A stretch of DNA of 64,000 bases from an uncultured Clostridia bacterium. GTDB taxonomy: Bacteria > Bacillota > Clostridia > TANB77 > CAG-508. The position numbers and the translations under genes are program-made. Positions 5,217 to 60,687 of the stretch are shown piece after piece; within the stretch, counting starts at the first letter, position 1; each line of letters begins with the position of its first letter. The DNA is taken from positions 95,979 through 159,978 of the forward strand of contig CAKOYQ010000001.1 of assembly GCA_934130935.1 (NCBI GenBank), read 5' to 3'. The notes under the pieces are model-generated. The model did no database searches. It worked only from the letters and a program-made list of their open reading frames with translations, and was not told the origin of the DNA.

Positions 5217-8015
5217 TTATTCACCTGCAACTGTATTTACTTTAAATAATTTTAATAATTCAACAATGGCTATTGGTGCTAACACTAATGCCATAACTTC
5301 TATCATGTTTCCAAGTGGTAGAATTGGTATACTAAACACGTGTCTTAAAGCAGGGACAGTCAATATTATAACCATTAAAAATGCTGAAAAAAGAACAGCC
5401 CATATTAATATCGGATTGCCTAATATTCCTGTTTTAAATATTGAATTTTTATTATCACGTATATTAAATACATGAACTAATTCAGAAAATGCTAATACGA
5501 TAAATACCATAGTTTGGCCAATCTCAATTTTAATTTCTTCTTTAGATATATATTCTCCGCCATTTGCTAATACTTCGTCCAAATTATCTATTTCTTCAGC
5601 TGATATTACCTGGTTCTCGTATGATATCATAGTTGGTAATTTATCATCAGGTGTTGCTAATCCTATTAGAAATGCTATAAGTGTAAGTAATCCAATCATT
5701 ACACCTTGATATATAATTCTAAAAGTTCTACCTTTTGTAAATATTCCCTCATCCTTTTTTATTGGTTTTCTATTCATTACATCTTTATTCGCTGGATCAA
5801 ATGCTAATGCCAATGCAGGAAATGTATCTGTTACAAGGTTTATCCATAATATATGAATTGGAAGTAAAACTTGTATCATTGTTACATCAGATATGCCAAA
5901 CCAACTAGCTATTGCTGGAGCAAATAATGTAGCCAATAGTAATACTATAACCTCTCCAACATTACATGAAATTAAAAATTGTATTACTTTTAGAATATTA
6001 TCATATATACGTCTTCCCTCTTCAACTGCTGATACTATTGTTGCAAAATTATCATCTGTTAAAATAACATCTGCAGCTTCTTTTGCAACTTCTGTTCCAA
6101 CTTTTCCCATTGCACATCCAATATCAGATGTTTTCAATGCTGGGCTATCATTTACACCATCACCTGTCATAGCAACTACTTCACCATTTGCTTGCCAAGC
6201 TTTTACTATACGGACTTTATGTTCAGGTGATACTCTTGCATACACTGAATATTTTCTTATATCTTTTGTTAATTGTTCATCAGATATCTTATCTAGCTCC
6301 AGTCCTGTTAGAGCCTCATTCTCATTTTCTAATATTCCTAATTTTTTTGCAATCGCAACTGCTGTAATTTTATGATCTCCTGTAATCATTACAGTTTTGA
6401 TTCCTGCATGTTTACATTTTTCAACAGCTTTTTTAGCCTCTTCTCTTGGCGGATCTATCATCCCAACCATTCCTATAAATGTAAGACCGCTTTCTATTGT
6501 TTTCATTTCTTCTTTTGACGGCTTATGGTCAATTTCTTTATATGCAAATGCCAATACTCTTAGTGCATCTTTTGCCATATCTTCATTGTTTTCTCTTATC
6601 CAATTAGCATATTCATCTATGTTTGTTTTTACTTCACCTTTGAATAAATATGAATTACATATTTTTAATAATTCATCTACTCCACCTTTTGTATAAATTG
6701 TATATTTTCCGTTGTTTTCATTTACAGTTGTCATTAATTTTCTTTCAGAATCAAATGGTATTTCTTCTACTCTTTTGTTTTCTCTATAAATTGATTGTTC
6801 ATAATCTTGTTTTAATGCCATATCTATTAATGCTGTTTCTGTAGGATCTCCTGTAATTTCGCAATTTTCAAGTATCCTAGAATCATTGCATAACATACAG
6901 TTGTATACTAATTTATTAAAATCATCTGTTGCATCAACTTTTTCTAAATCTACTGTTGTATCATTGCAAAATATTTTTTCAACAGTCATTTTGTTTTGTG
7001 TCAATGTTCCTGTTTTATCTGAACATATTACTGTACTGCTACCTAAAGTTTCTACAGCTGGTAATTTTTTTACAATAGCATGCTTCTTTACCATTTTTTG
7101 AACACCTATCGCTAATACTATTGTTGAAACAGCAACTAATCCTTCTGGTATTACAGCTACTGCAAGTGATACAGCTGTCATAAACATTCCAACTACACTC
7201 TTTCCTTGTAATAGACCTATAACAAATATTACTGCACATATTACTAAAGCTGCAATTCCAAGTGTTTTTCCTAAACTGTTTAATCTTGTTTGAAGTGGTG
7301 TTTCTTGTTTTTCTGTATTATTTAACATCCCTGCAATTTTACCAACTTCTGTATTCATACCAGTCTCAACTACAACTGCTTTTCCTCTACCATATGTAAT
7401 TAAACTTGATGAAAACAACATATTTACTCTATCGCCAATTCCAATTTCAGTTCCCTCGATAGCCATTATCTCTTTTTCTACTGGTACAGATTCACCTGTT
7501 AGTGAACTTTCTTGAGCTTTTAAATTAACAGCCTCTACTATTCTTAAATCAGCTGAGACATAATCTCCTGTTTCTATTATTACTATATCTCCAGGTACCA
7601 ACTCTCTCGCAGGAATAATTTGTTCCTTTCCATCTCTTATAACTTTTGCAGCATGTTCACTTAGTTTCTTTAATGCCTCTAATGATTTTTCAGCTTTGCT
7701 TTCTTGTGCTACTCCAATTACTGCATTTAGTAATACTACTATTAATATTATTATTGTATCAGTAAATCCCTCTCCTTGTGCAACTCCTACTACTCCTGAA
7801 ACTATTGCAGCTATTATTAATACTATTATTGAAAAATCTTTAAATTGAGCTATAAATTTTTTAATTAATGATTCTTTTTTCTTTTCTTTTAATTCATTAA
7901 GTCCATATTTTTCTTTATTCTCTGTCAACTTAATATTGCTTAAACCTTTTTCCAAATTTGTTCCTAGCTCTTTTTCAACATCTTTTACTTCTTTGTTAAA
8001 CCACTGCTTTTCCAT
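5217..8015 (-). CDS. calcium-translocating P-type ATPase (P2A/PMCA-like)
   Basis: 932 aa with the CSDKTGTLT phosphorylation motif, the TGDGVNDSPALK hinge, and an arrangement of about 10 TM helices. An N-terminal Cation_ATPase_N-like segment is present. Confidence 0.85.
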   Translation of the reverse strand: MEKQWFNKEVKDVEKELGTNLEKGLSNIKLTENKEKYGLNELKEKKKESLIKKFIAQFKDFSIIVLIIAAIVSGVVGVAQGEGFTDTIIILIVVLLNAVIGVAQESKAEKSLEALKKLSEHAAKVIRDGKEQIIPARELVPGDIVIIETGDYVSADLRIVEAVNLKAQESSLTGESVPVEKEIMAIEGTEIGIGDRVNMLFSSSLITYGRGKAVVVETGMNTEVGKIAGMLNNTEKQETPLQTRLNSLGKTLGIAALVICAVIFVIGLLQGKSVVGMFMTAVSLAVAVIPEGLVAVSTIVLAIGVQKMVKKHAIVKKLPAVETLGSSTVICSDKTGTLTQNKMTVEKIFCNDTTVDLEKVDATDDFNKLVYNCMLCNDSRILENCEITGDPTETALIDMALKQDYEQSIYRENKRVEEIPFDSERKLMTTVNENNGKYTIYTKGGVDELLKICNSYLFKGEVKTNIDEYANWIRENNEDMAKDALRVLAFAYKEIDHKPSKEEMKTIESGLTFIGMVGMIDPPREEAKKAVEKCKHAGIKTVMITGDHKITAVAIAKKLGILENENEALTGLELDKISDEQLTKDIRKYSVYARVSPEHKVRIVKAWQANGEVVAMTGDGVNDSPALKTSDIGCAMGKVGTEVAKEAADVILTDDNFATIVSAVEEGRRIYDNILKVIQFLISCNVGEVIVLLLATLFAPAIASWFGISDVTMIQVLLPIHILWINLVTDTFPALALAFDPANKDVMNRKPIKKDEGIFTKGRTFRIIYQGVMIGLLTLIAFLIGLATPDDKLPTMISYENQVISAEEIDNLDEVLANGGEYISKEEIKIEIGQTMVFIVLAFSELVHVFNIRDNKNSIFKTGILGNPILIWAVLFSAFLMVIILTVPALRHVFSIPILPLGNMIEVMALVLAPIAIVELLKLFKVNTVAGE

Positions 8016-8415
8016 TTACATCTTTCCTTTCTTCATTATTAGTCTAAATCAATTCTTTTTATTATATTATAACCATTTATGAAAATAATAAGACTCTTAA
8101 AGAAAAAATACATAATTTTTTCTTTAAAAGTCTCGTTTACTTTCTACTTGATGTCTGTTATTCTTTCGAACAAGCTTGCTAACCAGATTTACTTTCTATA
8201 AAAATAGAAAAATCGCGATTGTTGATTAGCAATTTAAAACTACTCCCTTTTAAGGTTATATATATAAAGTTCTTTATAGTTATTCTTAGTTATAAAAAAC
8301 TAAAGTACTAAAAAGTATTAATTAATTATATGACGATTATACATATATTATTCTTGCTTGTCAAGTTTTATTTGTAAATATTTTTTAAATATTAAGAATA
8401 ATATTTAAAAAATAA

Positions 8416-20112: not shown

Positions 20113-20154
20113 TCTTGTTTCCTCCTCTTCATTTAGGAAATGTTAGTCTTTGTT

Positions 20155-20181
20155 TTAGCACTCTTTCTATTTGTCTGCTAA
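20155..20181. promoter_or_regulatory. CIRCE operator (HrcA binding site), slightly degenerate
   Basis: Sense-strand ttagcagac-N9-gagtgctaa against the consensus TTAGCACTC-N9-GAGTGCTAA. The right arm is perfect and the left arm has 2 mismatches. It lies between the hrcA -10 and the RBS. Confidence 0.7.
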
Positions 20182-20191
20182 TCTGCATATT

Positions 20192-20220
20192 ACTATATAA
20201 TATTTTTTAGCACTTGTCAA
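20192..20220 (-). promoter_or_regulatory. hrcA sigma-A promoter (TTGACA-17-TATAGT)
   Basis: The minus strand reads ttgacaagtgctaaaaaatattatatagt. A half-CIRCE (agtgctaa) sits in the spacer. Confidence 0.5.
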
Positions 20221-20251
20221 GTCTTTTTGCTAATCTTTTTATTTTTTTTGA

Positions 20252-20315
20252 GGGACATTTGGGGTCGGTTCCGTTTTTGACCTTGGGCAATTTGGGGTCG
20301 GTTCTATTTTTGCCC
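20252..20315 (+). repeat. tandem pair of 31-bp GGGCAA-hairpin repeat units (first unit degenerate)
   Basis: gggacatttggggtcggttccgtttttgacc + tt + gggcaatttggggtcggttctatttttgccc + tttt. The pair lies between the nrdD stop and the hrcA promoter. The same unit recurs at 25350, 27106-27182, 27409-27485, 52116, 60406 and 60657. Confidence 0.85.
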
Positions 20316-20362
20316 TTTTGTTTGACCTATAAAAAGAACCAGTTTTTCTGGTTCTTTCAATC

Positions 20363-22489
20363 TTATAAATGTAAAACTCTTGATTTTATTTCTTTAGTTT
20401 TTCCAACATTCCAGAAATTCTCTCCAAGATATCCACACGTTCTACGAACAACATTCATTTTAGAATGGTCTTTATTTCCACATTGAGGACATTCCCATTC
20501 ATTCTTGTCATTTATAATCATTTCTCCATCATATCCACAAACTTGGCAATAATCTGATTTTGTATTAAATTCTGCATATTGAATATTATCATATATAAAT
20601 TTAACAACTTCTTCAAGTGCTTGCAAATTATTTCTCATATTAGGAACTTCTACATATGAAATAGCTCCACCTTTTGACATTGATTGGAATTCACTCTCAA
20701 ATTTAAGCTTGCTAAATGCATCAATTTTTTCTCTAACATCAACATGATATGAATTTGTATAATATCCTTTATCTGTAATATCAGGAATACTTCCATATTT
20801 TTCTTTATCTATACGTGCAAATCTATAACATAAACTTTCTGCTGGAGTTCCATATAATGCAAATCCAATATTTGTTTCTTTTTTCCATTTTTGTATTGTT
20901 TCATTTAGATGTTTCATAACTTTAATAGCAAAATCGTGACCTTCTTTTTGTGTATGTGAAACACCTTTTATTATTTTTGTAAGTTCATATATTCCTATAT
21001 ATCCTAATGATATACTTGAATATCCTCCATATAAATATTTATCAATTTTCTCTCCTTTTTTTAAACGTGCTATTGCACCATTTTGCCAGTGAACAGGAGA
21101 TATATCAGATTTTGTTCCTAATAATGCATAATGTCTACACATTATTGCTTCTTTACACAATTCTAGTCTTACATCAAATTCTTTCCAGAACTTTTCTTCA
21201 TCTCCACCTACTGCTAGACCGATTTGTGGTAAATTGATGCTTACTACACCTTGATTAAATCTTCCTTCAAATTTATAATTTCCATTTTCATCTTTCCATG
21301 GTGCTAAGAAACTTCTACATCCCATTGGACTAAATACATTTCCTTCATAATTTTCTTTCATTTTCTTAGCTGATATATAATCTGGATACATTCTCTTTGC
21401 AGAACATTTTACAGCTAGTTTTGTTAAATAATCATATTTACCACCTTTTAAGCAATTATGTTCATCTAATACATAAATTAATTTTGGGAATGCTGGTGTT
21501 ACATATACACCTACTTCATTTTTTATTCCTTGGATTCTTTGTTTTAAGATTTCCTCTATTATCATTGCATTTTCTTCAATATATTCATCATCTGGTTCTA
21601 AATGTAAGAACAATGTTACAAATGGTGACTGACCATTTGTAGTCATTAGTGTATTTATTTGATATTGAATTGTTTGTACTCCTGCTGATAATTCTTCTTT
21701 TACTCTATCTTTTACTATTTCTTCAATAGCACTCTTAGCTAATTTTCCACCATATTTTTCTGTTAATCTCTTTTGAAATTTGTCATGGCTTCTTCTCAAA
21801 TATTTTCCTAAATGTTTCATATCTACAGATTGTCCACCATATTGATTACTTGCAACTGCTGCAATTATTTGTGTTGTTACTGTACATGCTACCTGAAAAC
21901 TCTTTGGTGTTTCTATCATTTTTCCATTCATTGCTGTTCCATTGTCTAACATATCTCCAATATTTATTAAGCAACAATTAAATATTGGTTGTACAAAATA
22001 ATCTGCATCATGAAAATGTAAAATTCCCTCTTCATGTGCTTTTGATATCTTTTCTGGTAGCAAAATTCTCTTTGTTAAATCTCTTGAAACCTCTCCAGCT
22101 ATATAGTCTCTTTGAGTTGATGCTAATACTGTATTTTTGTTTGAGTTTTCTTCTGCTAATTCTTTATTTTCATTTCTAATCAATCCTAAAATTGATTCAT
22201 CTGTTGTATTTGACTTTCTAACTAATGCTCTTGTATATCTATAAACTATATATTTTTTAGCTAATTCATATTTATCAAATTCCATCAATTTTTCTTCTAT
22301 TACATCTTGAATGTCCTCAACCAACATTCTCTTTTTTCCTAAGTCTTCTATATAATTTATAATCTCATTAATTTCCTCTTTAGTCACTTTTTCTTTTCCT
22401 CTAACCTCTTTATTAGCTTTTTCAATGGCAATCTGGATTTTATTTCTATCAAAATCAATCGTTCTTCCGTCTCTTTTAATAACTTTCAT
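20363..22489 (-). CDS. nrdD: anaerobic ribonucleoside-triphosphate reductase (class III)
   Basis: 708 aa with an N-terminal ATP-cone. The C-terminal Zn ribbon is CQVCGY...CPQCGN and the glycyl-radical motif is RTCGYLG. Confidence 0.9.
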   Translation of the reverse strand: MKVIKRDGRTIDFDRNKIQIAIEKANKEVRGKEKVTKEEINEIINYIEDLGKKRMLVEDIQDVIEEKLMEFDKYELAKKYIVYRYTRALVRKSNTTDESILGLIRNENKELAEENSNKNTVLASTQRDYIAGEVSRDLTKRILLPEKISKAHEEGILHFHDADYFVQPIFNCCLINIGDMLDNGTAMNGKMIETPKSFQVACTVTTQIIAAVASNQYGGQSVDMKHLGKYLRRSHDKFQKRLTEKYGGKLAKSAIEEIVKDRVKEELSAGVQTIQYQINTLMTTNGQSPFVTLFLHLEPDDEYIEENAMIIEEILKQRIQGIKNEVGVYVTPAFPKLIYVLDEHNCLKGGKYDYLTKLAVKCSAKRMYPDYISAKKMKENYEGNVFSPMGCRSFLAPWKDENGNYKFEGRFNQGVVSINLPQIGLAVGGDEEKFWKEFDVRLELCKEAIMCRHYALLGTKSDISPVHWQNGAIARLKKGEKIDKYLYGGYSSISLGYIGIYELTKIIKGVSHTQKEGHDFAIKVMKHLNETIQKWKKETNIGFALYGTPAESLCYRFARIDKEKYGSIPDITDKGYYTNSYHVDVREKIDAFSKLKFESEFQSMSKGGAISYVEVPNMRNNLQALEEVVKFIYDNIQYAEFNTKSDYCQVCGYDGEMIINDKNEWECPQCGNKDHSKMNVVRRTCGYLGENFWNVGKTKEIKSRVLHL

Positions 22490-25011: not shown

Positions 25012-25335
25012 TTAAAACTTTGTTTCTTTAGCACTTAATTCTATTATTTTTTCCATATCATCATCTTCTGCGACCTTGTTTTTACGTATCTTTCCACATT
25101 TTTTACATCTAAAAATAATAACATACCCTTTTTTAGAATTTGTTTCAAGACCTATTGGTTCTAAAATTCCGTGACATGTTTCTGCTCTATCACCTGGGTT
25201 TATATCTAAATGTTTTGAATGTAAGCAGTATGGGCAATGGTTCCTACAAGTATAACCCAATTTAGGAACCTTTTTGCCACAATTCTCACATATGAATTCT
25301 TCATCTATTTTAGTAAATTTACTTGTTTCTAACAT
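25012..25335 (-). CDS. RNHCP domain zinc-ribbon protein
   Basis: 107 aa with two CxxC pairs and the literal RNHCPYC motif (CENCGKK...CRNHCPYCLHSKH...CKKCGK). Confidence 0.6.
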   Translation of the reverse strand: MLETSKFTKIDEEFICENCGKKVPKLGYTCRNHCPYCLHSKHLDINPGDRAETCHGILEPIGLETNSKKGYVIIFRCKKCGKIRKNKVAEDDDMEKIIELSAKETKF

Positions 25336-25349
25336 TTATATCCTTTCTA

Positions 25350-25413
25350 GGGCAATTCGGGGTCGGTTCCATTTTTGCCCTTGGGACATTTGGGGTCGGT
25401 TCCGTTTTTGCCC
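25350..25413 (+). repeat. tandem pair of 31-bp GGGCAA-hairpin repeat units
   Basis: gggcaattcggggtcggttccatttttgccc + tt + gggacatttggggtcggttccgtttttgccc + ttttt. The pair fills the intergenic gap between the kinase-like gene stop and the RNHCP start. Confidence 0.85.
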
Positions 25414-25420
25414 TTTTTAA

Positions 25421-27028
25421 TTATCCCTTAAAATCTCCTCCACCAAGAAATTCTTTAAGCAAAGAATTTGATGGAACTAATTCTTTTGGTATTGGTTCGA
25501 AATATCGCAATATCTCAAGTAATCTTTGTGCCTCAGCATATTCTGGTTCTGAGTTTTTGATTTGTTTTAATAATGGTTCAGCTTCAGCTTTAAGTACTCC
25601 TAATTCATAAATCAATGATGTATTAAAAATACTATCAGCATCTTCTTGGAATGGAAATATATTTCTTTCTTCCCCTCTATTTACATTATTCCACGTCTGA
25701 ATTGTTTTTTGAGGTGAATATCCTCTAAACTGATTATCTCTAACAATTCTCCTTATTAGTCTTGTATCTGTTGTTGAAATTCTATTAAAAGCATCCATAT
25801 TAAGTACTGTTAACGCACTTATATACACTTTGTATTTTTGGTCATGTGGTATTTTTTCGGTCAATTTATCATTTAAGCAATGAATTCCTTCAATTACAAG
25901 TATATCGTCTTTCTCCATTTTTATTTTATTTCCATTATATTTCTTAGTTCCTTCATGAAAATCAAATTCTGGTGTTTCAACTTCCTCCCCATTTAACAAT
26001 GCTAATAAATGCTTATTAAATAGTTCTGTATCAATAGCGTCAATACTTTCAAAGTCATATTCTCCTTTTTTATTTAGAGGTGTCTGTGATCTTTCTACAA
26101 AGTAATTATCTACAGAAATTGTTACAGGTCTCAATCCATTTATTTTAAGTTGAATACCTAATCTTTGTGCAAATGTTGTCTTTCCTGATGACGATGGCCC
26201 AGCTATTAAAATTATTTTTACACCTTTTCTTTCTGCTATTTTATCTGCTATTTGAGAAATTTTTTTCTCATGTAAAGCTTCTGACAATAGTATCATATAT
26301 TTTATTTGATTTTCTTTTACAATTCTGTTTAATCTATATACTGTTCCTACATTTAAAACTCTGTATATCGTCTCATATTCTTGTAAAGCCCATAATAATT
26401 TTTTTGTTTCTTTAAATTCTGGAATTATATTAACATTACTTGAAGTTGGATATCTTAACAAAAAACCATCACTATATTTTTGCAAGTCAAATAATTTTGT
26501 AACTCCTGTATGTGTTGCAATTATCTCATAGAAGTAATTAAAATAATCATCACAGTAATACATGTTAATATCTTCTTTTTCTTTTAAATCAAATTGTAAT
26601 CTTCCTTTTGGTGTATTTGTTTCTTTGTAAAATACTTCTGCTTCTTGTCTAGTCATTGTCCTTTTTTCTATCTTTAAATCTTTTTTAATTATTTCTTGCA
26701 TTTTCTCTTTGACTTTTTCTAGCATATCATCAGTTATTTCCATATTTTCTATATTACAATACATTGCATGTGATAATTGGTAATCTACAATTATATGTGC
26801 CTCTGGATATATATGCCAAAATGCTTTTCCCATTATAAATGTCAAAGTTCTTCTATATATTTTCATTCCTTCTTTTGAATTAATTTTAATTAGTTCTATG
26901 TCTCCATTCTTTGCAACTATGTCATCTAAATTTTTATATTCATTATTAACTTTAGCTCCTACAACTGGATATTCACTCTTTTCTATTTGTTCTTTTAATA
27001 ATTCTGATATTCTTATATTTTCTTCCAT
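25421..27028 (-). CDS. uridine kinase/phosphoribulokinase-family nucleoside kinase with N-terminal TGS-like domain
   Basis: 535 aa. A P-loop (IAGPSSSGKTTFAQRL) sits in the C-terminal half, and the N-terminal ~200 aa resemble the ThrRS/GTPase TGS fold. This architecture is conserved in Clostridia. Confidence 0.6.
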   Translation of the reverse strand: MEENIRISELLKEQIEKSEYPVVGAKVNNEYKNLDDIVAKNGDIELIKINSKEGMKIYRRTLTFIMGKAFWHIYPEAHIIVDYQLSHAMYCNIENMEITDDMLEKVKEKMQEIIKKDLKIEKRTMTRQEAEVFYKETNTPKGRLQFDLKEKEDINMYYCDDYFNYFYEIIATHTGVTKLFDLQKYSDGFLLRYPTSSNVNIIPEFKETKKLLWALQEYETIYRVLNVGTVYRLNRIVKENQIKYMILLSEALHEKKISQIADKIAERKGVKIILIAGPSSSGKTTFAQRLGIQLKINGLRPVTISVDNYFVERSQTPLNKKGEYDFESIDAIDTELFNKHLLALLNGEEVETPEFDFHEGTKKYNGNKIKMEKDDILVIEGIHCLNDKLTEKIPHDQKYKVYISALTVLNMDAFNRISTTDTRLIRRIVRDNQFRGYSPQKTIQTWNNVNRGEERNIFPFQEDADSIFNTSLIYELGVLKAEAEPLLKQIKNSEPEYAEAQRLLEILRYFEPIPKELVPSNSLLKEFLGGGDFKG

Positions 27029-27105: not shown

Positions 27106-27485
27106 GGGTAATTTGGGGGACATTTGGGGTCGGTTCCGTTTTTGCCCAATGGGGTAATTCGGGGTCGGTTCCATTTTTGCCCTTTTTCTCTTAAATATGA
27201 TAATTATTAATATTAAATATAAACTTTAAATGAAATGACGAATATGATTGGAGAAACTTTAGAAATTCTACGAAATTTTATGGAAAGAGTTCACGAGAGT
27301 GGAAGGGTGCCATAAAATAAGTTAGAATTTCTTAAGTTTCGTAATGAATCGAGGGAATGTAATGCAAAGTTTATATTTAATATTAATAAATTAGTTATGT
27401 CTCGAAAAGGGCAAAAGTGGAACCGACCCCGAATTACCCCATTGGGCAAAAACGGAACCGACCCCAAATGTCCCCCAAATTACCC
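27106..27485. mobile_element. composite palindromic element: 77-bp inverted arms (two GGGCAA-hairpin units each) flanking a ~180-bp copy of the conserved core element (MITE-like)
   Basis: The left arm 27106-27182 and the right arm 27409-27485 are reverse complements with a single mismatch. The core at 27207-27386 is homologous to the cores at 650-831, 47078-47259 and 60464-60630. Confidence 0.6.
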
Positions 27486-27516
27486 GCACAAAAAAACGAG
27501 CATTTCTGCCCGTCTT

Positions 27517-29064
27517 CTATTTTGCATAATCAACAACTCTAGTTTCTCTAATAATATTGACTTTTATTTGTCCTGGATAATCCATCTCATCTTCGATTCT
27601 CTTAGACACATCTCTTGCAAGTAAAGTCATTTGATCATCTGAAATTTTTTCTGGTTTTACAATTATTCTTACTTCTCTACCAGCTTGAATTGCAAATGAT
27701 TTTTCAACTCCGTCAAAAGAATCAGCTATAGACTCAAGATTTTCCAATCTTTTTATGTAAGCTTCCAAAGTTTCTCTTCTTGCTCCTGGTCTTGATGCTG
27801 ATATCGCATCAGCAGCTTGTACTAATACAGCTTCTAGCGTTTGTGGTTCAACATCTCCATGGTGTGCCTCTACTGCATTTATTACAAGTTGGTTTTCTTT
27901 AAATTTCTTTAATATATCTACACCAATCTGAACATGAGTTCCCTCCATGTCATGATCTAAGGCTTTACCTATGTCATGTAACAATCCAGCTCTACGTGCA
28001 AGTTTTGGATCTAAGCCAAGCTCTTCTGCCATTATCCTTGCTAAGTTTGAAACTTCTATTGAGTGATTTAATACATTTTGTCCATAACTTGTTCTGTATT
28101 TTAACTTTCCTATTAGTTTTATAAGTTCTGGATTTAAACCAATTACTCCAGTTTCTAATGCTGCTCTTTCTCCCTCTGATTTTATAGTTTCTGACAATTC
28201 TTCTTTAGCCTTTTCTACCATTTCTTCTATTTTGGCTGGATGTATTCTTCCATCATCTATCAACTTCTCAAGGGCAATTCTTGCTACTTCTCTTCTTAAT
28301 GGATCAAAACCTGATAATATCACTGCTTCTGGTGTATCATCTATTATTAAATCTATTCCTGTAAGAGTCTCTAATGCTCTTATATTTCTACCTTCTCTAC
28401 CTATAATTCTTCCTTTAATATCATCTGATGGAAGTGGTACTATTGAAACTGTAGTCTCTGCTGAGTGGTCTGCAGCACATTTTTGAATTGCATAACTTAT
28501 TGTCTCTCTTGCATTCTTCTTTGCTTCCTCTTTAGCTTTTTGCTCTAAATCTTTAATTAATATAGCTTTTTCAGCTGTTATTTCTTGTTCCACTGAACTC
28601 AATAATTGTACTTTTGCCTCTTCTTTAGTTAAGTTCGCAACCTTTTGAAGAACCTCTAATTGCTCATTCTTTAATTCTTCAATATGCTGTTCCTTCTCTT
28701 TTAGTTCACGTTCTCCTTTTTCTAACTCTCTTTCTTTTTTCTCAAAATTGTCTGAACGTTTTTCTAAGTTCTCTTCTTTTTGGATAATTCTACTTTCTTG
28801 TTTTTGTATTTCGCCTCTTCTTTCTTTAATCTCTTGATCTAATTCATTTCTAGCATTCATAATTTCTTCTTTTGCTTTAAAAATTTGTTCTTTTTTTAAA
28901 TTTTCTGCCTCTATTTTCGCTAGGTCTACTAATCTTTGTGCTTCTTTTTCTGCTCCTCCAATTTTAGATTCAGCAATTTTTTTTCTTATTACCATCCCCA
29001 ATGGTATTCCTATTGCTAATGAGATTAAGACAGTGGCTACTATGATTAAAATATCCATAATCAT
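27517..29064 (-). CDS. rny: ribonuclease Y
   Basis: 515 aa with an N-terminal TM and a long K/E-rich coiled coil. It has a KH domain and an HD domain ([18 protein letters not shown]). Confidence 0.9.
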
Positions 29065-47077: not shown

Positions 47078-47259
47078 CTCTTAGAATACTATAAACTTTG
47101 AATGAAATTCCGAATGTGCATGTAGAACCTTTAGAAATTTTTATGTAATTTTATGGAAAGAGTTCACGAGAGTGGAAGGGTGCCATAAAATAAATTAAAA
47201 TTTCTTAAGGTTCGAAATAAACCGAGGAATGAAATGAAAAGTTTATAGTATTCTAAGAG
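47078..47259. mobile_element. core repeat element copy C with 22-bp terminal inverted repeats (MITE-like), between Alg13-like gene stop and ftsE promoter
   Basis: The left end ctcttagaatactataaacttt and the right end aaagtttatagtattctaagag are perfect inverted repeats. The core is homologous to the copies at 650, 27207 and 60464. Confidence 0.6.
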
Positions 47260-47265
47260 TATATA

Positions 47266-47745
47266 TTAATTATTATCTATAAAATCCTGTACAATGCTTA
47301 TAATTTTTCCTGTATTTTGAATATATTTCTTAGGTTCAAATTTTTCAATTCTCTTTAACGCATCTCCTAATTGAGAAACATCTGTAACTCCTATAATATA
47401 TCCCATTTCGTCAAAAGATTTTACAATATCAAGTTGATGGTTATTTACATGTTCATTATACTCTTTTAATCTAGGAACAGCAATCACCTTTTTGCCTTGT
47501 TCTATTGAAGTTATAATTGAACCAACCCCACCATGTGTTATAATCAAGTCTGCTTTATTTATTAATTTTTTCATTTCTTCCATTGGAATTTGATTATATA
47601 TTGTCATATCTTTACTTGAAAACTTTGTATAACCTTCTTGAACAATTACACTATCTTTTATGTTTCCATTCTCTATGTTTCTCTGTATTTCTTCTAGTAA
47701 TCTATGGAAACTATTATTTTGTGTTCCTAACAATACTAATACCAT
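47266..47745 (-). CDS. Alg13-like glycosyltransferase subunit (GT28 C-terminal domain; PssE/Cps14G-like)
   Basis: 159 aa. ADLIITHGGVGSIITSIEQGKKVIAVPR matches the UDP-sugar binding half of split MurG/Alg13-type transferases. Confidence 0.65.
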   Translation of the reverse strand: MVLVLLGTQNNSFHRLLEEIQRNIENGNIKDSVIVQEGYTKFSSKDMTIYNQIPMEEMKKLINKADLIITHGGVGSIITSIEQGKKVIAVPRLKEYNEHVNNHQLDIVKSFDEMGYIIGVTDVSQLGDALKRIEKFEPKKYIQNTGKIISIVQDFIDNN

Positions 47746-51325: not shown

Positions 51326-52090
51326 TTACTCTTCTATTTTCGCACGTTTCAAAATCTTTTCTTTACTTTCATTAGTAAACATTGCTCTATTTGCCTGTTC
51401 TTTTGCAGATCTTGCAATACTTTTTAGCTCTTCTAACTTCTTATCAACATTTACTGAATAATCTGTAGCAATCATTTTAACAAATTCAGGAATATCTTTA
51501 GACTCTCTAATTAATTTTTGTAATCTAGCAAAAACTGTTGTATTCACAACACCTTGTATCTCAATTTTTTCCATGGCTTCAACAAAATTTCTAAAAATCT
51601 CCAAATATCTATTATATTCAGTTTTTAGGTTTCTATGTTCTAATAAAACAAGAGCCTCTTCTGGACTAAATCCAATTCTTTCTGGTCTATCTATTAGCAT
51701 TCCTCCAAATTGATCAGCCAATTCTAATATATCACTTTCTCCTTCTCTAGGATTACCACTATACCTGTTTACGCCTTCGCAAATCTTGCAAAATCTTTCG
51801 TCAAATCCTAATTTAGCTAAATATTCAGCGCCCTCTCTTGCATATGTTTTTATCTTTCCTATCTTTTGAGCATCATCTACTTTTTTACAATTACATAGTA
51901 AACAAGCTGTTAGCACCAAATTAAAATCCACTTTAGGATTTGCATACTTCAAAAACATCCTTGCTATTTCTGTTTTAAATATAATCGATTTGTCAAAATT
52001 AATTTTAAGTTTTGGCGCTAAAAAATATATTATCTCTATTTTTGATATTAAATCATCTTCATTTAAAATATAATCAGCAAATTCTTCCAT
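51326..52090 (-). CDS. hypothetical protein
   Basis: ORF with no recognisable motif. The start is trimmed to the ATG at 52090 (AGAGGGGGA RBS), because the 16 upstream codons of the ORF track are the translated GGGCAA hairpin repeat. Confidence 0.35.
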   Translation of the reverse strand: MEEFADYILNEDDLISKIEIIYFLAPKLKINFDKSIIFKTEIARMFLKYANPKVDFNLVLTACLLCNCKKVDDAQKIGKIKTYAREGAEYLAKLGFDERFCKICEGVNRYSGNPREGESDILELADQFGGMLIDRPERIGFSPEEALVLLEHRNLKTEYNRYLEIFRNFVEAMEKIEIQGVVNTTVFARLQKLIRESKDIPEFVKMIATDYSVNVDKKLEELKSIARSAKEQANRAMFTNESKEKILKRAKIEE

Positions 52091-52115: not shown

Positions 52116-52146
52116 GGGCAATTTGGGGTCGGTTCCATTTTTGCCC
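52116..52146 (+). repeat. solo 31-bp GGGCAA-hairpin repeat unit
   Basis: gggcaatttggggtcggttccatttttgccc followed by ttttttatttt. It lies between the ftsH stop and the downstream gene's RBS. Confidence 0.85.
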
Positions 52147-57368: not shown

Positions 57369-57658
57369 GGATTAAGCATTACATGTTTTTTTACAACCTA
57401 AGGTAGGCCCAAAGGAGGAATTGCATAAAATAAATGAAAGATTTTGTGTATCTAATCTTAACACTAGAAGTTCTTATAGAAGCAAATGAGGAATGTTCAC
57501 GGGCAAACTTGTAAGTTTGAGCTTGAGTGAAAGAGGCTCATTTGATTCAATTAGAACTTCTGTGGTAAGATTGGCTTATCCAAAATCTGTAATGGTTTTT
57601 ATGCAATTCCTCCTTTGGGCCCACCTTAGGTTGTAAAAAAACATGTAACACTTAATCC
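57369..57658. mobile_element. 290-bp palindromic element with 62-bp near-perfect terminal inverted repeats (MITE-like or structured RNA)
   Basis: The left TIR (57369-57430) and the right TIR (57597-57658) differ at 3 positions. Nested internal dyads include CAAACTTgtAAGTTTG. Each TIR carries AAAGGAGGA. Confidence 0.55.
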
Positions 57659-60405: not shown

Positions 60406-60687
60406 GGGCAAATTGGGGTCGGTTCTTTTTTTGCCCTCTTAATAATTTATTAGAATTACCAATATAAATATAAATTTTAAATGAAATGACGAATGTAATT
60501 GGAGAAACTTTAGAAATTGTATGAAATTTCATGGAAATAGTTCATGAGAATGAAAGGGTGCCATAAAATAAATTACAATTTCTTAAGTTTCGTAATGCGC
60601 CGAGGAGTGTAATGAAAAATTTATATTTATATTAGTAATTAGTATTAAAAATTAAAGGGCAAAAAAAGAACCGACCCCAATTTGCCC
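60406..60687. mobile_element. composite palindromic element: perfect 31-bp inverted GGGCAA-hairpin arms flanking core repeat copy D
   Basis: The arm at 60406-60436 is the reverse complement of the arm at 60657-60687. The core at 60464-60630 has aaaattt/aaatttt subterminal repeats. The element fills the ftsY-to-UPF0182 intergenic region. Confidence 0.65.

Follow-up and report, generated by a model that had tools for sequence, protein, structure and literature searches.

The REP, BIME and REPIN sequences of Enterobacteria and Pseudomonas, together with their RAYT (TnpA-REP) genes (PMC2817692, PMC3116915, PMC3479197, PMC5581495), serve here as the main comparison for a 31-nt hairpin repeat, termed the unit, which recurs in a 64-kb stretch of DNA from an uncultured Clostridia bacterium (contig CAKOYQ010000001.1), the whole of which was analysed and is referred to as the window. 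Nearly all work on REP/RAYT systems has concerned Proteobacteria. Bertels et al. reported RAYT group 1 in Clostridia as well, and found that only groups 2 and 3 are strongly tied to abundant flanking 16-mers; this restriction to two groups is one of two gaps that are relevant to the present case (PMC5581495). Di Nocera et al. described RAYT-like genes, named TIRYT, whose flanking inverted repeats share the sequence GGGGWSAS and occur as moderately abundant monomers, dimers and clusters (PMC3733652). The TIRYTs were assigned by Quentin et al. to subclass 2.1 of TnpA-Y1, characterised by a C-terminal helix-turn-helix (HTH) extension, and no REP-like sequences were found near those genes, which is the other relevant gap (PMC6006769).

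The 31-nt hairpin is a genuine repeat, located between genes and present in very many copies in an uncultured gut Clostridium of low GC content. We consider it quite probable that the units are REP-type miniature repeats of a REP/RAYT-like system (a 'REPtron' or 'TIRtron') in a clade of such Clostridia, and the repeat is most likely tied to a single-copy, domesticated IS200-like (RAYT/TIRYT) transposase gene present in related genomes.

A dense family of intergenic hairpin repeats

The window has a GC content of 28%, a strongly negative GC skew and nearly all of its genes on the - strand. The unit, GGGCAATTTGGGGTCGGTTCCATTTTTGCCC, occurs there at 10 positions with at most three mismatches, against 0.00 expected, and its core, GGGGTCGGTTC, is present in 11 exact copies where 0.03 would be expected by chance. 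Full units number 11 and are distributed over six sites, all of them intergenic, at a density of about one per 6 kb. At least 12 had been counted in a previous reading of the same DNA made from its letters only (hereafter the sequence-only reading), but the twelfth hit, a core-like match at 47519, carries one mismatch, lies within an open reading frame (ORF) and lacks the unit flanks, and was left out of the count.

Proteins encoded in the window were found on many human-gut metagenome contigs, and the fetched contigs and metagenome-assembled genome (MAG) loci contain about 350 further copies of the unit. When species-representative genomes were scanned for the exact pattern, the unit was recovered only from MAGs of uncultured Clostridia ('Clostridium sp. 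28_12', '26_22' and 'Clostridia bacterium HGM12814'), apart from a single weaker match in a MAG of the Lachnospiraceae. When metagenome contigs were scanned with the loop, instead of the stem, as the anchor, at least 120 stretches were recovered, almost all from human-gut assemblies, and viral contigs held no copy. Rfam has no family for the units, whether the window was searched at gathering thresholds or a composite element (composite 1, see below) at E <= 10; the matches consisted of one tRNA and of spurious long-hairpin microRNA models only. A full-text literature search for the conserved 12-mer of the unit, or for its complement, returned no paper mentioning either. Two further candidates were rejected, namely, a CRISPR-like array, the spacers between tandem units being only 2-4 nt long, and a tRNA-derived origin, dismissed by eye for want of a T-loop consensus. 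In the uncultured Clostridia bacterium BRZ_HA bin44 (locus L014, 3680-3815), five or more related units (TTTAACATTGGGGTCGGTYC...), arrayed head to tail, retain the GGGGTCGGT core without the GGG.../...CCC outer stem, and have the look of a family variant that has diverged or degenerated.

A fixed apical 12-mer on a covarying stem

A logo of 235 distinct copies, collected by anchoring on the core, revealed essentially invariant positions 10-20, strong conservation of G1-G3, A6, T23-T27 and C29-C31, and variability at positions 4, 5, 8, 9 and 22; the T32-T35 run forms a tail belonging to the unit. As a control for the anchoring, units were found again by their flanks alone (n=319). The 12-mer GGGGTCGGTTCC, nearly invariant across units, was exact in 293 of these 319, carried one mismatch in 25 and four mismatches in the remaining one. 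It is also kept in related families with entirely different stems, which argues for sequence-specific recognition and not for a mere terminator stem.

The unit was initially described as a 6-bp GC stem closing a conserved 19-nt loop. The perfect 6-bp stem exists in only about half of the units. The commonest form in the wider sample is GGGACA...TTGCCC, not GGGCAA, and its stem consists of 3+2 bp with a bulged A. The 19-nt segment is indeed the most conserved part, but it is not a plain loop, as it holds an inner helix (U9-A22, G10-C21, G11-C20, G12-U19) in + strand RNA or single-stranded DNA (ssDNA). In units of the GGGCAA type, the + strand folds into a 6-bp outer and a 4-bp inner helix followed by U's (-12.8 kcal/mol), whereas the - strand fold is weaker (-10.6 kcal/mol) and without U-tract; the + strand hairpin of the GGGACA type reaches -8.2 kcal/mol. 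Only the G/T-rich strand forms the extended structure because GGGGUCGGUUCC is self-complementary only with G-U pairs. A hairpin directly preceding a U-tract, as in intrinsic terminators, is found on the + strand only. A promoter/terminator scanner did not call the units as terminators, probably owing to its 3-8-nt loop limit, which excludes the apical region.

Across related families, the outer stem pairs as GGGCAA/TTGCCC, CGGCAA/TTGCCG, TCG.../...CGA or TGCACA/TGTGCA, and compensatory double changes affect five of the six outer-stem pairs among related genomes. The covariation score of the outer stem (0.202, versus 0.131 in shuffles) was reached in none of 500 shuffles, and controls in which the pairing was slid gave at most 0.087. 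Since the stem covaries while the 12-mer is fixed, the former is maintained as a structure and the latter as a sequence. A random loop with only the stem conserved, as envisaged for an ordinary REP-like terminator, is contradicted by a fixed 12-mer and a varying stem.

A Y1 transposase gene associated with the repeat

Among the intervals bounded by inverted units, the one at positions 7578-8360 of locus L113 encodes a 260-aa protein harbouring HUH (NHVHMVI) and Tyr (RYVHRNP) motifs. This protein matches Pfam Y1_Tnp with 44 bits (cutoff 23) and NCBIfam NF047646 REP_Tyr_transpos ('REP-associated tyrosine transposase') with 51.5 bits, below the cutoff of 80. Its AlphaFold2 model (mean predicted local distance difference test, pLDDT, 74.5) matches the fold of IS608 TnpA (E 2.5e-6, 2vic being among the structures matched) and, with the best coverage, that of E. 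coli TnpA-REP in complex with a REP hairpin (4er8, E 8e-6, TM-score 0.68). The fold search was needed, as PDB sequence searches with the single sequence or with a 19-sequence profile gave no match and did not reach 4er8. At E <= 1e-20, 913 homologues were retrieved, one source labelling its copy 'REP element-mobilizing transposase RayT'. The protein carries a C-terminal extension of about 120 aa, in which helices are modelled at residues 193-257 with a pLDDT of 81-92. No significant Pfam HTH was found in this extension, HTH_7 being reported in one of 19 homologues with E = 0.014. Other inverted units lying 0.5-4 kb apart were also considered as possible transposase borders, but most of these intervals contain housekeeping genes (ddl, pyruvate kinase), and L113 is the only one with a Y1 gene.

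Species whose proteins share 61-100% identity with that of L113 carry the Y1 gene as a single copy in the same syntenic slot, flanked by NuoE/F-like genes and by YunB/SipL/SpoVG, and it therefore behaves as a single-copy, vertically inherited gene. In L113, units are located on its 3' side only. In locus L180, whose protein is 91% identical to that of L113, the units are arranged as ++ gene --, in L168-170 (77% identity) as ++ gene -+, and in L181-183 (61% identity) as +++ gene --. The units are of the GGGGTCGGTTC type where the protein is 77-100% identical to that of L113. The repeat is GGGGACGGTTC with a 69%-identical homologue, and TGCACATTTGGGACCGGTTCTGTTTTGTGCA with the 61%-identical one, to which the core form GGGACCGGTTCT is cognate. 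The TGCACATTTGGGACCGGTTCTGTTTTGTGCA family is found in five further gene junctions of its locus as well, always in antisense orientation. On comparison of these sequences, the repeat core diverges together with the protein. Inverted flanking units combined with co-divergence constitute the REPtron pattern of REP/RAYT systems, here in related genomes. With respect to L168-L180, the Y1 gene of L181-L183 is inverted within the same slot (YunB/SipL on one side, NuoE/F on the other), an arrangement to be expected were the gene itself inverted by way of the inverted repeats that flank it.

Orientation, spacing and variation among strains

The arrangement of the units was surveyed in about 205 clusters from approximately 1 Mb of fetched loci. 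These comprise 91 solo units, 84 tandem pairs, 5 triplets and about 25 clusters with inverted units, the interior of the latter usually measuring 216-226 nt and, in a few cases, 16-41 nt. Once duplicate sites were removed, the solo and tandem clusters situated between co-directional genes comprised 47 antisense and 13 sense ones (binomial p = 1e-5). The former lie 1-20 nt past the upstream stop codon and mostly 12-29 nt ahead of the next ATG, whereas sense clusters lie -1 to 10 nt past the stop codon, with the next start at least 89 nt off in 13/13. Junctions shorter than 60 nt accommodate 37 of the 47 antisense clusters and none of the 13 sense ones (Fisher p = 2e-7). Random orientation and position of the copies, the other outcome that would have spoken for an ordinary REP-like terminator, is thus contradicted in the fetched loci by both the bias and the spacing rule. 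In the simplest reading, the sense orientation would terminate transcription and be tolerated only at the ends of transcription units, while the antisense orientation would be harmless in operon junctions. The placement just upstream of a ribosome-binding site (RBS) would result from the unit filling short operon junctions in the sole orientation that does not produce an mRNA hairpin with a U-tract.

Strains with 99-100% identical flanks differ by one versus two units or two versus three units at a given site, and the arms of inverted clusters by 1+1 versus 2+2, a symmetrical change, or 1+1 versus 1+3. The comparison of substitution rates between orthologous units and their flanks was uninformative, the signal being dominated by copy-number gaps.

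Composite elements and their inversion

Two sites of the window contain inverted units, as already noted in the sequence-only reading. In composite 1, two tandem units on the + strand (27117-27182) face two tandem units on the - strand (27409-27474), the latter in terminator orientation behind the RNase Y gene. The full left arm spans 81 nt (27106-27186) and includes a partial unit head, GGGTAATTTGG; it is 99% complementary to the right arm (27405-27485). In composite 2, a + strand unit of the GGTTCTTTTTTT subtype (60406-60436) faces a - strand unit (60657-60687) located 6 nt past the stop codon of an FtsY-like gene, and the arms are 100% complementary across 33 nt. Partial unit heads (GGGTAATTTGG, GGCATTTGGG) occur directly 5' of full units at 27106-27116, at 27475-27485 and around 520-560 of locus L009, as if the 5' third of the unit had been duplicated abortively or by slippage. 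A whole composite folds as a near-perfect hairpin of about 380 nt.

The segments between the arms, 27183-27408 in composite 1 and 60437-60656 in composite 2, each include one copy of another dispersed repeat. This second repeat, referred to as the core, is quasi-palindromic, measures about 160 nt and has inverted ends of its own (AAATATAAACTTTRAATGAAAT...) as well as palindromic extensions that are specific to each copy. The window carries four copies of this core, all on the + strand: those at 27215-27377 and 60466-60627 lie between unit arms, and those at 659-821 and 47088-47249 stand alone. Neither an Rfam match nor a conserved ORF was found in these four copies; a 26-aa ORF at 27233 was rejected, as the alignment revealed early stop codons in the other copies. 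The core could be a transposable element of the miniature inverted-repeat kind (MITE) or a structured RNA.

In a comparison of loci L001-L006 and L137-L151, from strains whose flanks are at least 99% identical, each segment was found in both orientations; MEGAHIT contigs with k = 119/141, values exceeding the length of the inverted repeats, are among them. For composite 1, orientation A is present in L001, L002/L147, L003 and L151, and orientation B in the window, L004/L150, L005, L006, L148 and L149; for composite 2, eight loci have the interior in one orientation and two in the other. By comparison, cores without unit arms kept a constant orientation in 9/9 and 6/6 strains (15/15 loci). The arms are perfectly matched within a composite and different between composites, and both arms co-vary between orthologous sites of different species (L009 versus L015). 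Perfect inverted repeats, through recombination, gene conversion or template switching, explain both the flipping and the homogenisation, so that a dedicated invertase is not needed. No recombinase gene adjoins the composites, the sole tyrosine recombinase nearby being an XerD-like gene beside spoIIM, and promoter-like matches in the core are not in excess (4, versus 2.9 +/- 1.7 in shuffled sequence). A hybrid composite was observed upstream of the PRK-family gene on the single contig that carries L004 and L150 (ERZ27229799 k119_228777; about 2040-2420 of L150). On its left side, both the arms and the link derive from the composite located downstream of minC, as in L103 and L117, and the hybrid represents either a large rearrangement between dispersed composites or an assembly chimera.

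Proposed origin of the units and comparison with known systems

In the scheme that we propose, the outer stem would be required only as a structure, hence its covariation, and the apical GGGGTCGGTTCC would act as the sequence-specific determinant, recognised by the Y1 (HUH) transposase, which is encoded by a single-copy, vertically inherited gene. Judging from TnpA-REP and IS608 TnpA, this enzyme would bind the hairpin folded in ssDNA and cut one strand, and units would be seeded, duplicated and deleted as a consequence. Inserted units would then be filtered by their effect on transcription. A transcript of the G/T-rich orientation would form a 10-bp hairpin followed by U's, that is, a putative intrinsic terminator, and such copies would survive only at the ends of transcription units, while the opposite orientation, with its weaker hairpin and without U-tract, would be the only one tolerated in tight operon junctions. 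Inverted units form long perfect palindromes, in which recombination or template switching between the arms may homogenise them and flip the interior.

The idea put forward in the sequence-only reading, that the conserved loop is a binding site rather than a simple terminator stem, is supported in part: the loop proved to be conserved as proposed, including across families with different stems, and the placement is non-random. The best candidate for the binder would, however, be the REP-associated Y1 transposase and not a regulator of the downstream RBS, and the element remains REP-like in its behaviour, of an unusual, loop-conserved type.

The likeness to REP/RAYT systems comprises extragenic hairpins of about 30 nt, a very high copy number with several subtypes per genome, clustering, a single-copy, vertically inherited Y1/HUH gene surrounded by inverted copies of its own repeat and co-diverging with it, and possible roles in termination or mRNA stability. 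The units differ in that the determinant would reside in the apical 'loop', the stem being variable, in that a T-run tail is part of the unit, and in their host, a Gram-positive Clostridium of 28% GC. In common with the TIRYTs, the Y1 protein is longer, with a C-terminal extension, and the flanking inverted repeats occur as monomers, dimers and clusters. The agreement of GGGGTCGG and GGGGACGG with GGGGWSAS is partial, seven of eight positions, with G for A at position 7. However, the TIRYT repeats are described as 'moderately abundant', and subclass 2.1 as devoid of REP-like hairpins near the gene (PMC6006769), whereas the present repeat is dense and forms a clear hairpin with stem covariation. 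The TIRYT extension carries an HTH; Pfam finds no significant one in the C-terminal part here. RAYT group 1, equated with TIRYT and subclass 2.1, has been reported in Clostridia (PMC5581495), to which the present host belongs. As for the subterminal hairpins of the IS200/IS605 family (IS608, ISDra2), the protein fold is the same, recognition of an imperfect hairpin on one strand would be the expected mode, and G-T wobbles restrict the extended hairpin to the G/T-rich strand of the unit. In contrast to this family, the units are not the ends of a transposase-carrying element, and the gene is single-copy and syntenic instead of multicopy.

Several observations weigh against a REP/RAYT-like origin. 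The GT[AG]G motif found at the foot of REP hairpins is absent, the 235 distinct copies showing no GTAG/CTAC at either end and at most 0.4 bit 5' of G1. The mobile unit of Pseudomonas is thought to be an inverted doublet (REPIN), whereas units occur here mostly alone (91) or as direct tandems (89 including triplets), with few inverted pairs having a 16-41 nt spacer. Because of the missing foot and the minority of inverted doublets, the element is filed as a variant of the REP/RAYT-TIRYT kind and not as a canonical REP. The protein is, furthermore, about 100 aa longer than the RAYT (TnpA-REP) of Enterobacteria and Pseudomonas and scores below the NCBIfam cutoff for RAYTs. A tblastn search found no Y1 transposase gene in the window. 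The assembly that contains L113 also contains contigs sharing 98-99.9% identity with the window, and the coverage of L113 is 5.34x, versus 5.27x and 5.34x for those contigs; this is suggestive, but not proof, of the presence of the gene in the window's own genome. Units may reach 12 in 7 kb (L180), and a unit beside any gene is unsurprising by itself; at such density, the case for a REPtron is made by the inverted layout, which recurs in four species, together with co-divergence. The search for clean empty sites and target duplications yielded only copy-number variants and one over-diverged site (L043 versus L028), so that mobility is deduced from copy-number polymorphism and distribution. Lastly, a preference of ssDNA transposition for one replication strand could account for part of the orientation bias; in the window, the directions of genes and of replication are confounded. 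The dependence of orientation on junction length argues for a role of transcription.

Alternative explanations

The units might have evolved in the host as cis-acting RNA hairpins of polycistronic mRNAs, the loop being bound by an RNA-binding protein or an RNase that controls the stability of the upstream cistron or the translation of the downstream one. This is how the sequence-only reading may be understood, and we judge it improbable. Antisense units follow a stop codon by 1-20 nt and precede the next ATG by 12-29 nt, which puts them just upstream of the RBS; this speaks in its favour, as do the conserved loop and its exposure, on the mRNA strand, of AUGGAAC, a GGA-type motif that we presume to be comparable to CsrA-type sites. 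However, no single RNA reading fits all copies, given the opposite orientation at transcription-unit ends and the inverted pairs; the copy number varies at the same junction in near-identical strains, which is not how a tuned regulatory site behaves, the genes beside the units have unrelated functions, and the family tracks a transposase gene. Individual copies may nonetheless have been exapted as RNA elements. Even less credible, in our opinion, is a set of plain intrinsic terminators or insulators, alike by common descent and served by no dedicated enzyme. Such elements would possess the hairpin and T-run that are observed, sense copies do follow stop codons directly with a long spacer to the next gene, and inverted pairs would terminate in both directions. 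Yet 47 of the 60 co-directional copies are in the non-terminating orientation relative to their genes, the nrdD and RNase Y genes have separate terminator hairpins beside the units, and a terminator has no need of an invariant 12-mer, which is fixed here while the stem varies.

Two other explanations start from the composites, and each seems to us very unlikely. If the units were the terminal inverted repeats of a composite MITE of about 380 or 280 nt, solo and tandem copies being leftovers of decayed composites, the symmetrical unit arms and the constant 216-226-nt interior at many loci would be accounted for. But solo and tandem clusters outnumber composites by about 7 to 1 (180 versus ~25), the core also occurs without unit arms (659-821, 47088-47249) and has inverted ends of its own, arms differ between composites while matching perfectly within each, and inverted unit pairs exist with a spacing of only 16-41 nt. 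The composite looks like a second element nested in an inverted unit pair. Alternatively, the units could be the sites of a site-specific invertase and the composites programmed phase-variable switches, or invertons, such as the fimS-type switches and the invertible promoters of gut bacteria. The composites (but only they) resemble invertons by their segment of about 220 nt between inverted repeats, present in both orientations in natural populations (about 4 versus 6 for composite 1, 2 versus 8 plus the window for composite 2), and cores devoid of unit arms never flip (15/15). They differ from them by the lack of an adjacent recombinase gene and of a convincing promoter, promoter-like hits being no commoner than in shuffled sequence, and by the nature of their inverted repeats, which are copies of a dispersed family enclosing an interior that is itself a dispersed repeat. 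Moreover, perfect repeats of 33-81 nt can flip by homologous recombination or template switching, the arms of the armless cores are only about 85% matched, which explains their stability equally well, and most units are not in inverted pairs.

The REP/RAYT-like reading, which we favour, could also be extended to a system integrated into the host, in which the units would be more than selfish DNA that is tolerated. By means of the invariant GGGGTCGGTTCC hairpin, the domesticated Y1 enzyme would set, multiply and delete oriented transcriptional 'punctuation', with terminators where transcription units end, stabilising or insulating hairpins in operons and inverted pairs as frequent inversion switches. 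We hold this extension to be improbable. If true, it would represent the first REP/RAYT-type system with a defined function in Gram-positive bacteria, with recognition by a loop sequence on a covarying stem, unlike the GTAG-foot model. Irrespective of such a function, a dense hairpin repeat co-diverging with a C-terminally extended Y1 gene in gut Clostridia would widen the REP/RAYT partnership to include Firmicutes, and the matched variants of protein and repeat (GGGGTCGG, GGGGACGG, GGGACCGG) would provide a natural series for testing recognition by the enzyme. In practical terms, the units create spurious ORFs and false N-terminal extensions, break metagenome assemblies, vary in copy number between strains and give rise to local inversions and, probably, to larger rearrangements. 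They should therefore be masked or modelled by annotators, and by pipelines for strain tracking, that deal with these common gut organisms.

Units and neighbouring features in the window

The remaining sites of the window hold tandem pairs and a solo unit, all on the + strand and followed by a T-run, with flanking genes on the - strand, to which they are therefore antisense, in agreement with the sequence-only reading. The pair at 20252-20315 is located between the nrdD terminator and the hrcA promoter/CIRCE region. It consists of a GGGACA-subtype unit with a degenerate 3' half (..TTGACC; 20252-20282) and a GGGCAA-subtype unit followed by TTTT (20285-20315). The nrdD gene has its own terminator hairpin beside the units (about 20333-20360), and a separate one adjoins the units behind the RNase Y gene; as both genes keep their own terminators, the units are regarded as additions and not as the original terminators.

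The pair at 25350-25413 fills the 85-nt junction between the stop codon of a PRK-family gene (25421) and the start of the RNHCP gene (25335). Its first unit is of the GGGCAA subtype (25350-25380), and its second, of the GGGACA subtype and followed by TTTTT (25383-25413), lies 7 nt from the PRK-family stop codon; the pair lies 14 nt upstream of the RNHCP ATG, and the earlier description had likewise put it before the RNHCP gene. The solo unit at 52116-52146, an exact match to the consensus, occupies a 60-nt operon junction, 4 nt from the upstream stop codon. It is 25 nt away from the ATG at 52090 of the 51326-52090 ORF, and not 15 nt as previously stated. The repeats do give rise to the spurious ORFs 20214-20486, 25323-25610 and 27397-27624, and to a false N-terminal extension to 52138, all of which had been recognised as artefacts from the start.

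A further long quasi-palindrome, unrelated in sequence to the units and to the ~160-nt core, lies between two - strand genes at 57369-57658, with arms of 78 nt that are 90% complementary and 134 nt apart. Finally, just downstream of the tandem units, the hrcA promoter region (20150-20240) carries an inverted repeat resembling CIRCE (TTAGCACTC...N9...).

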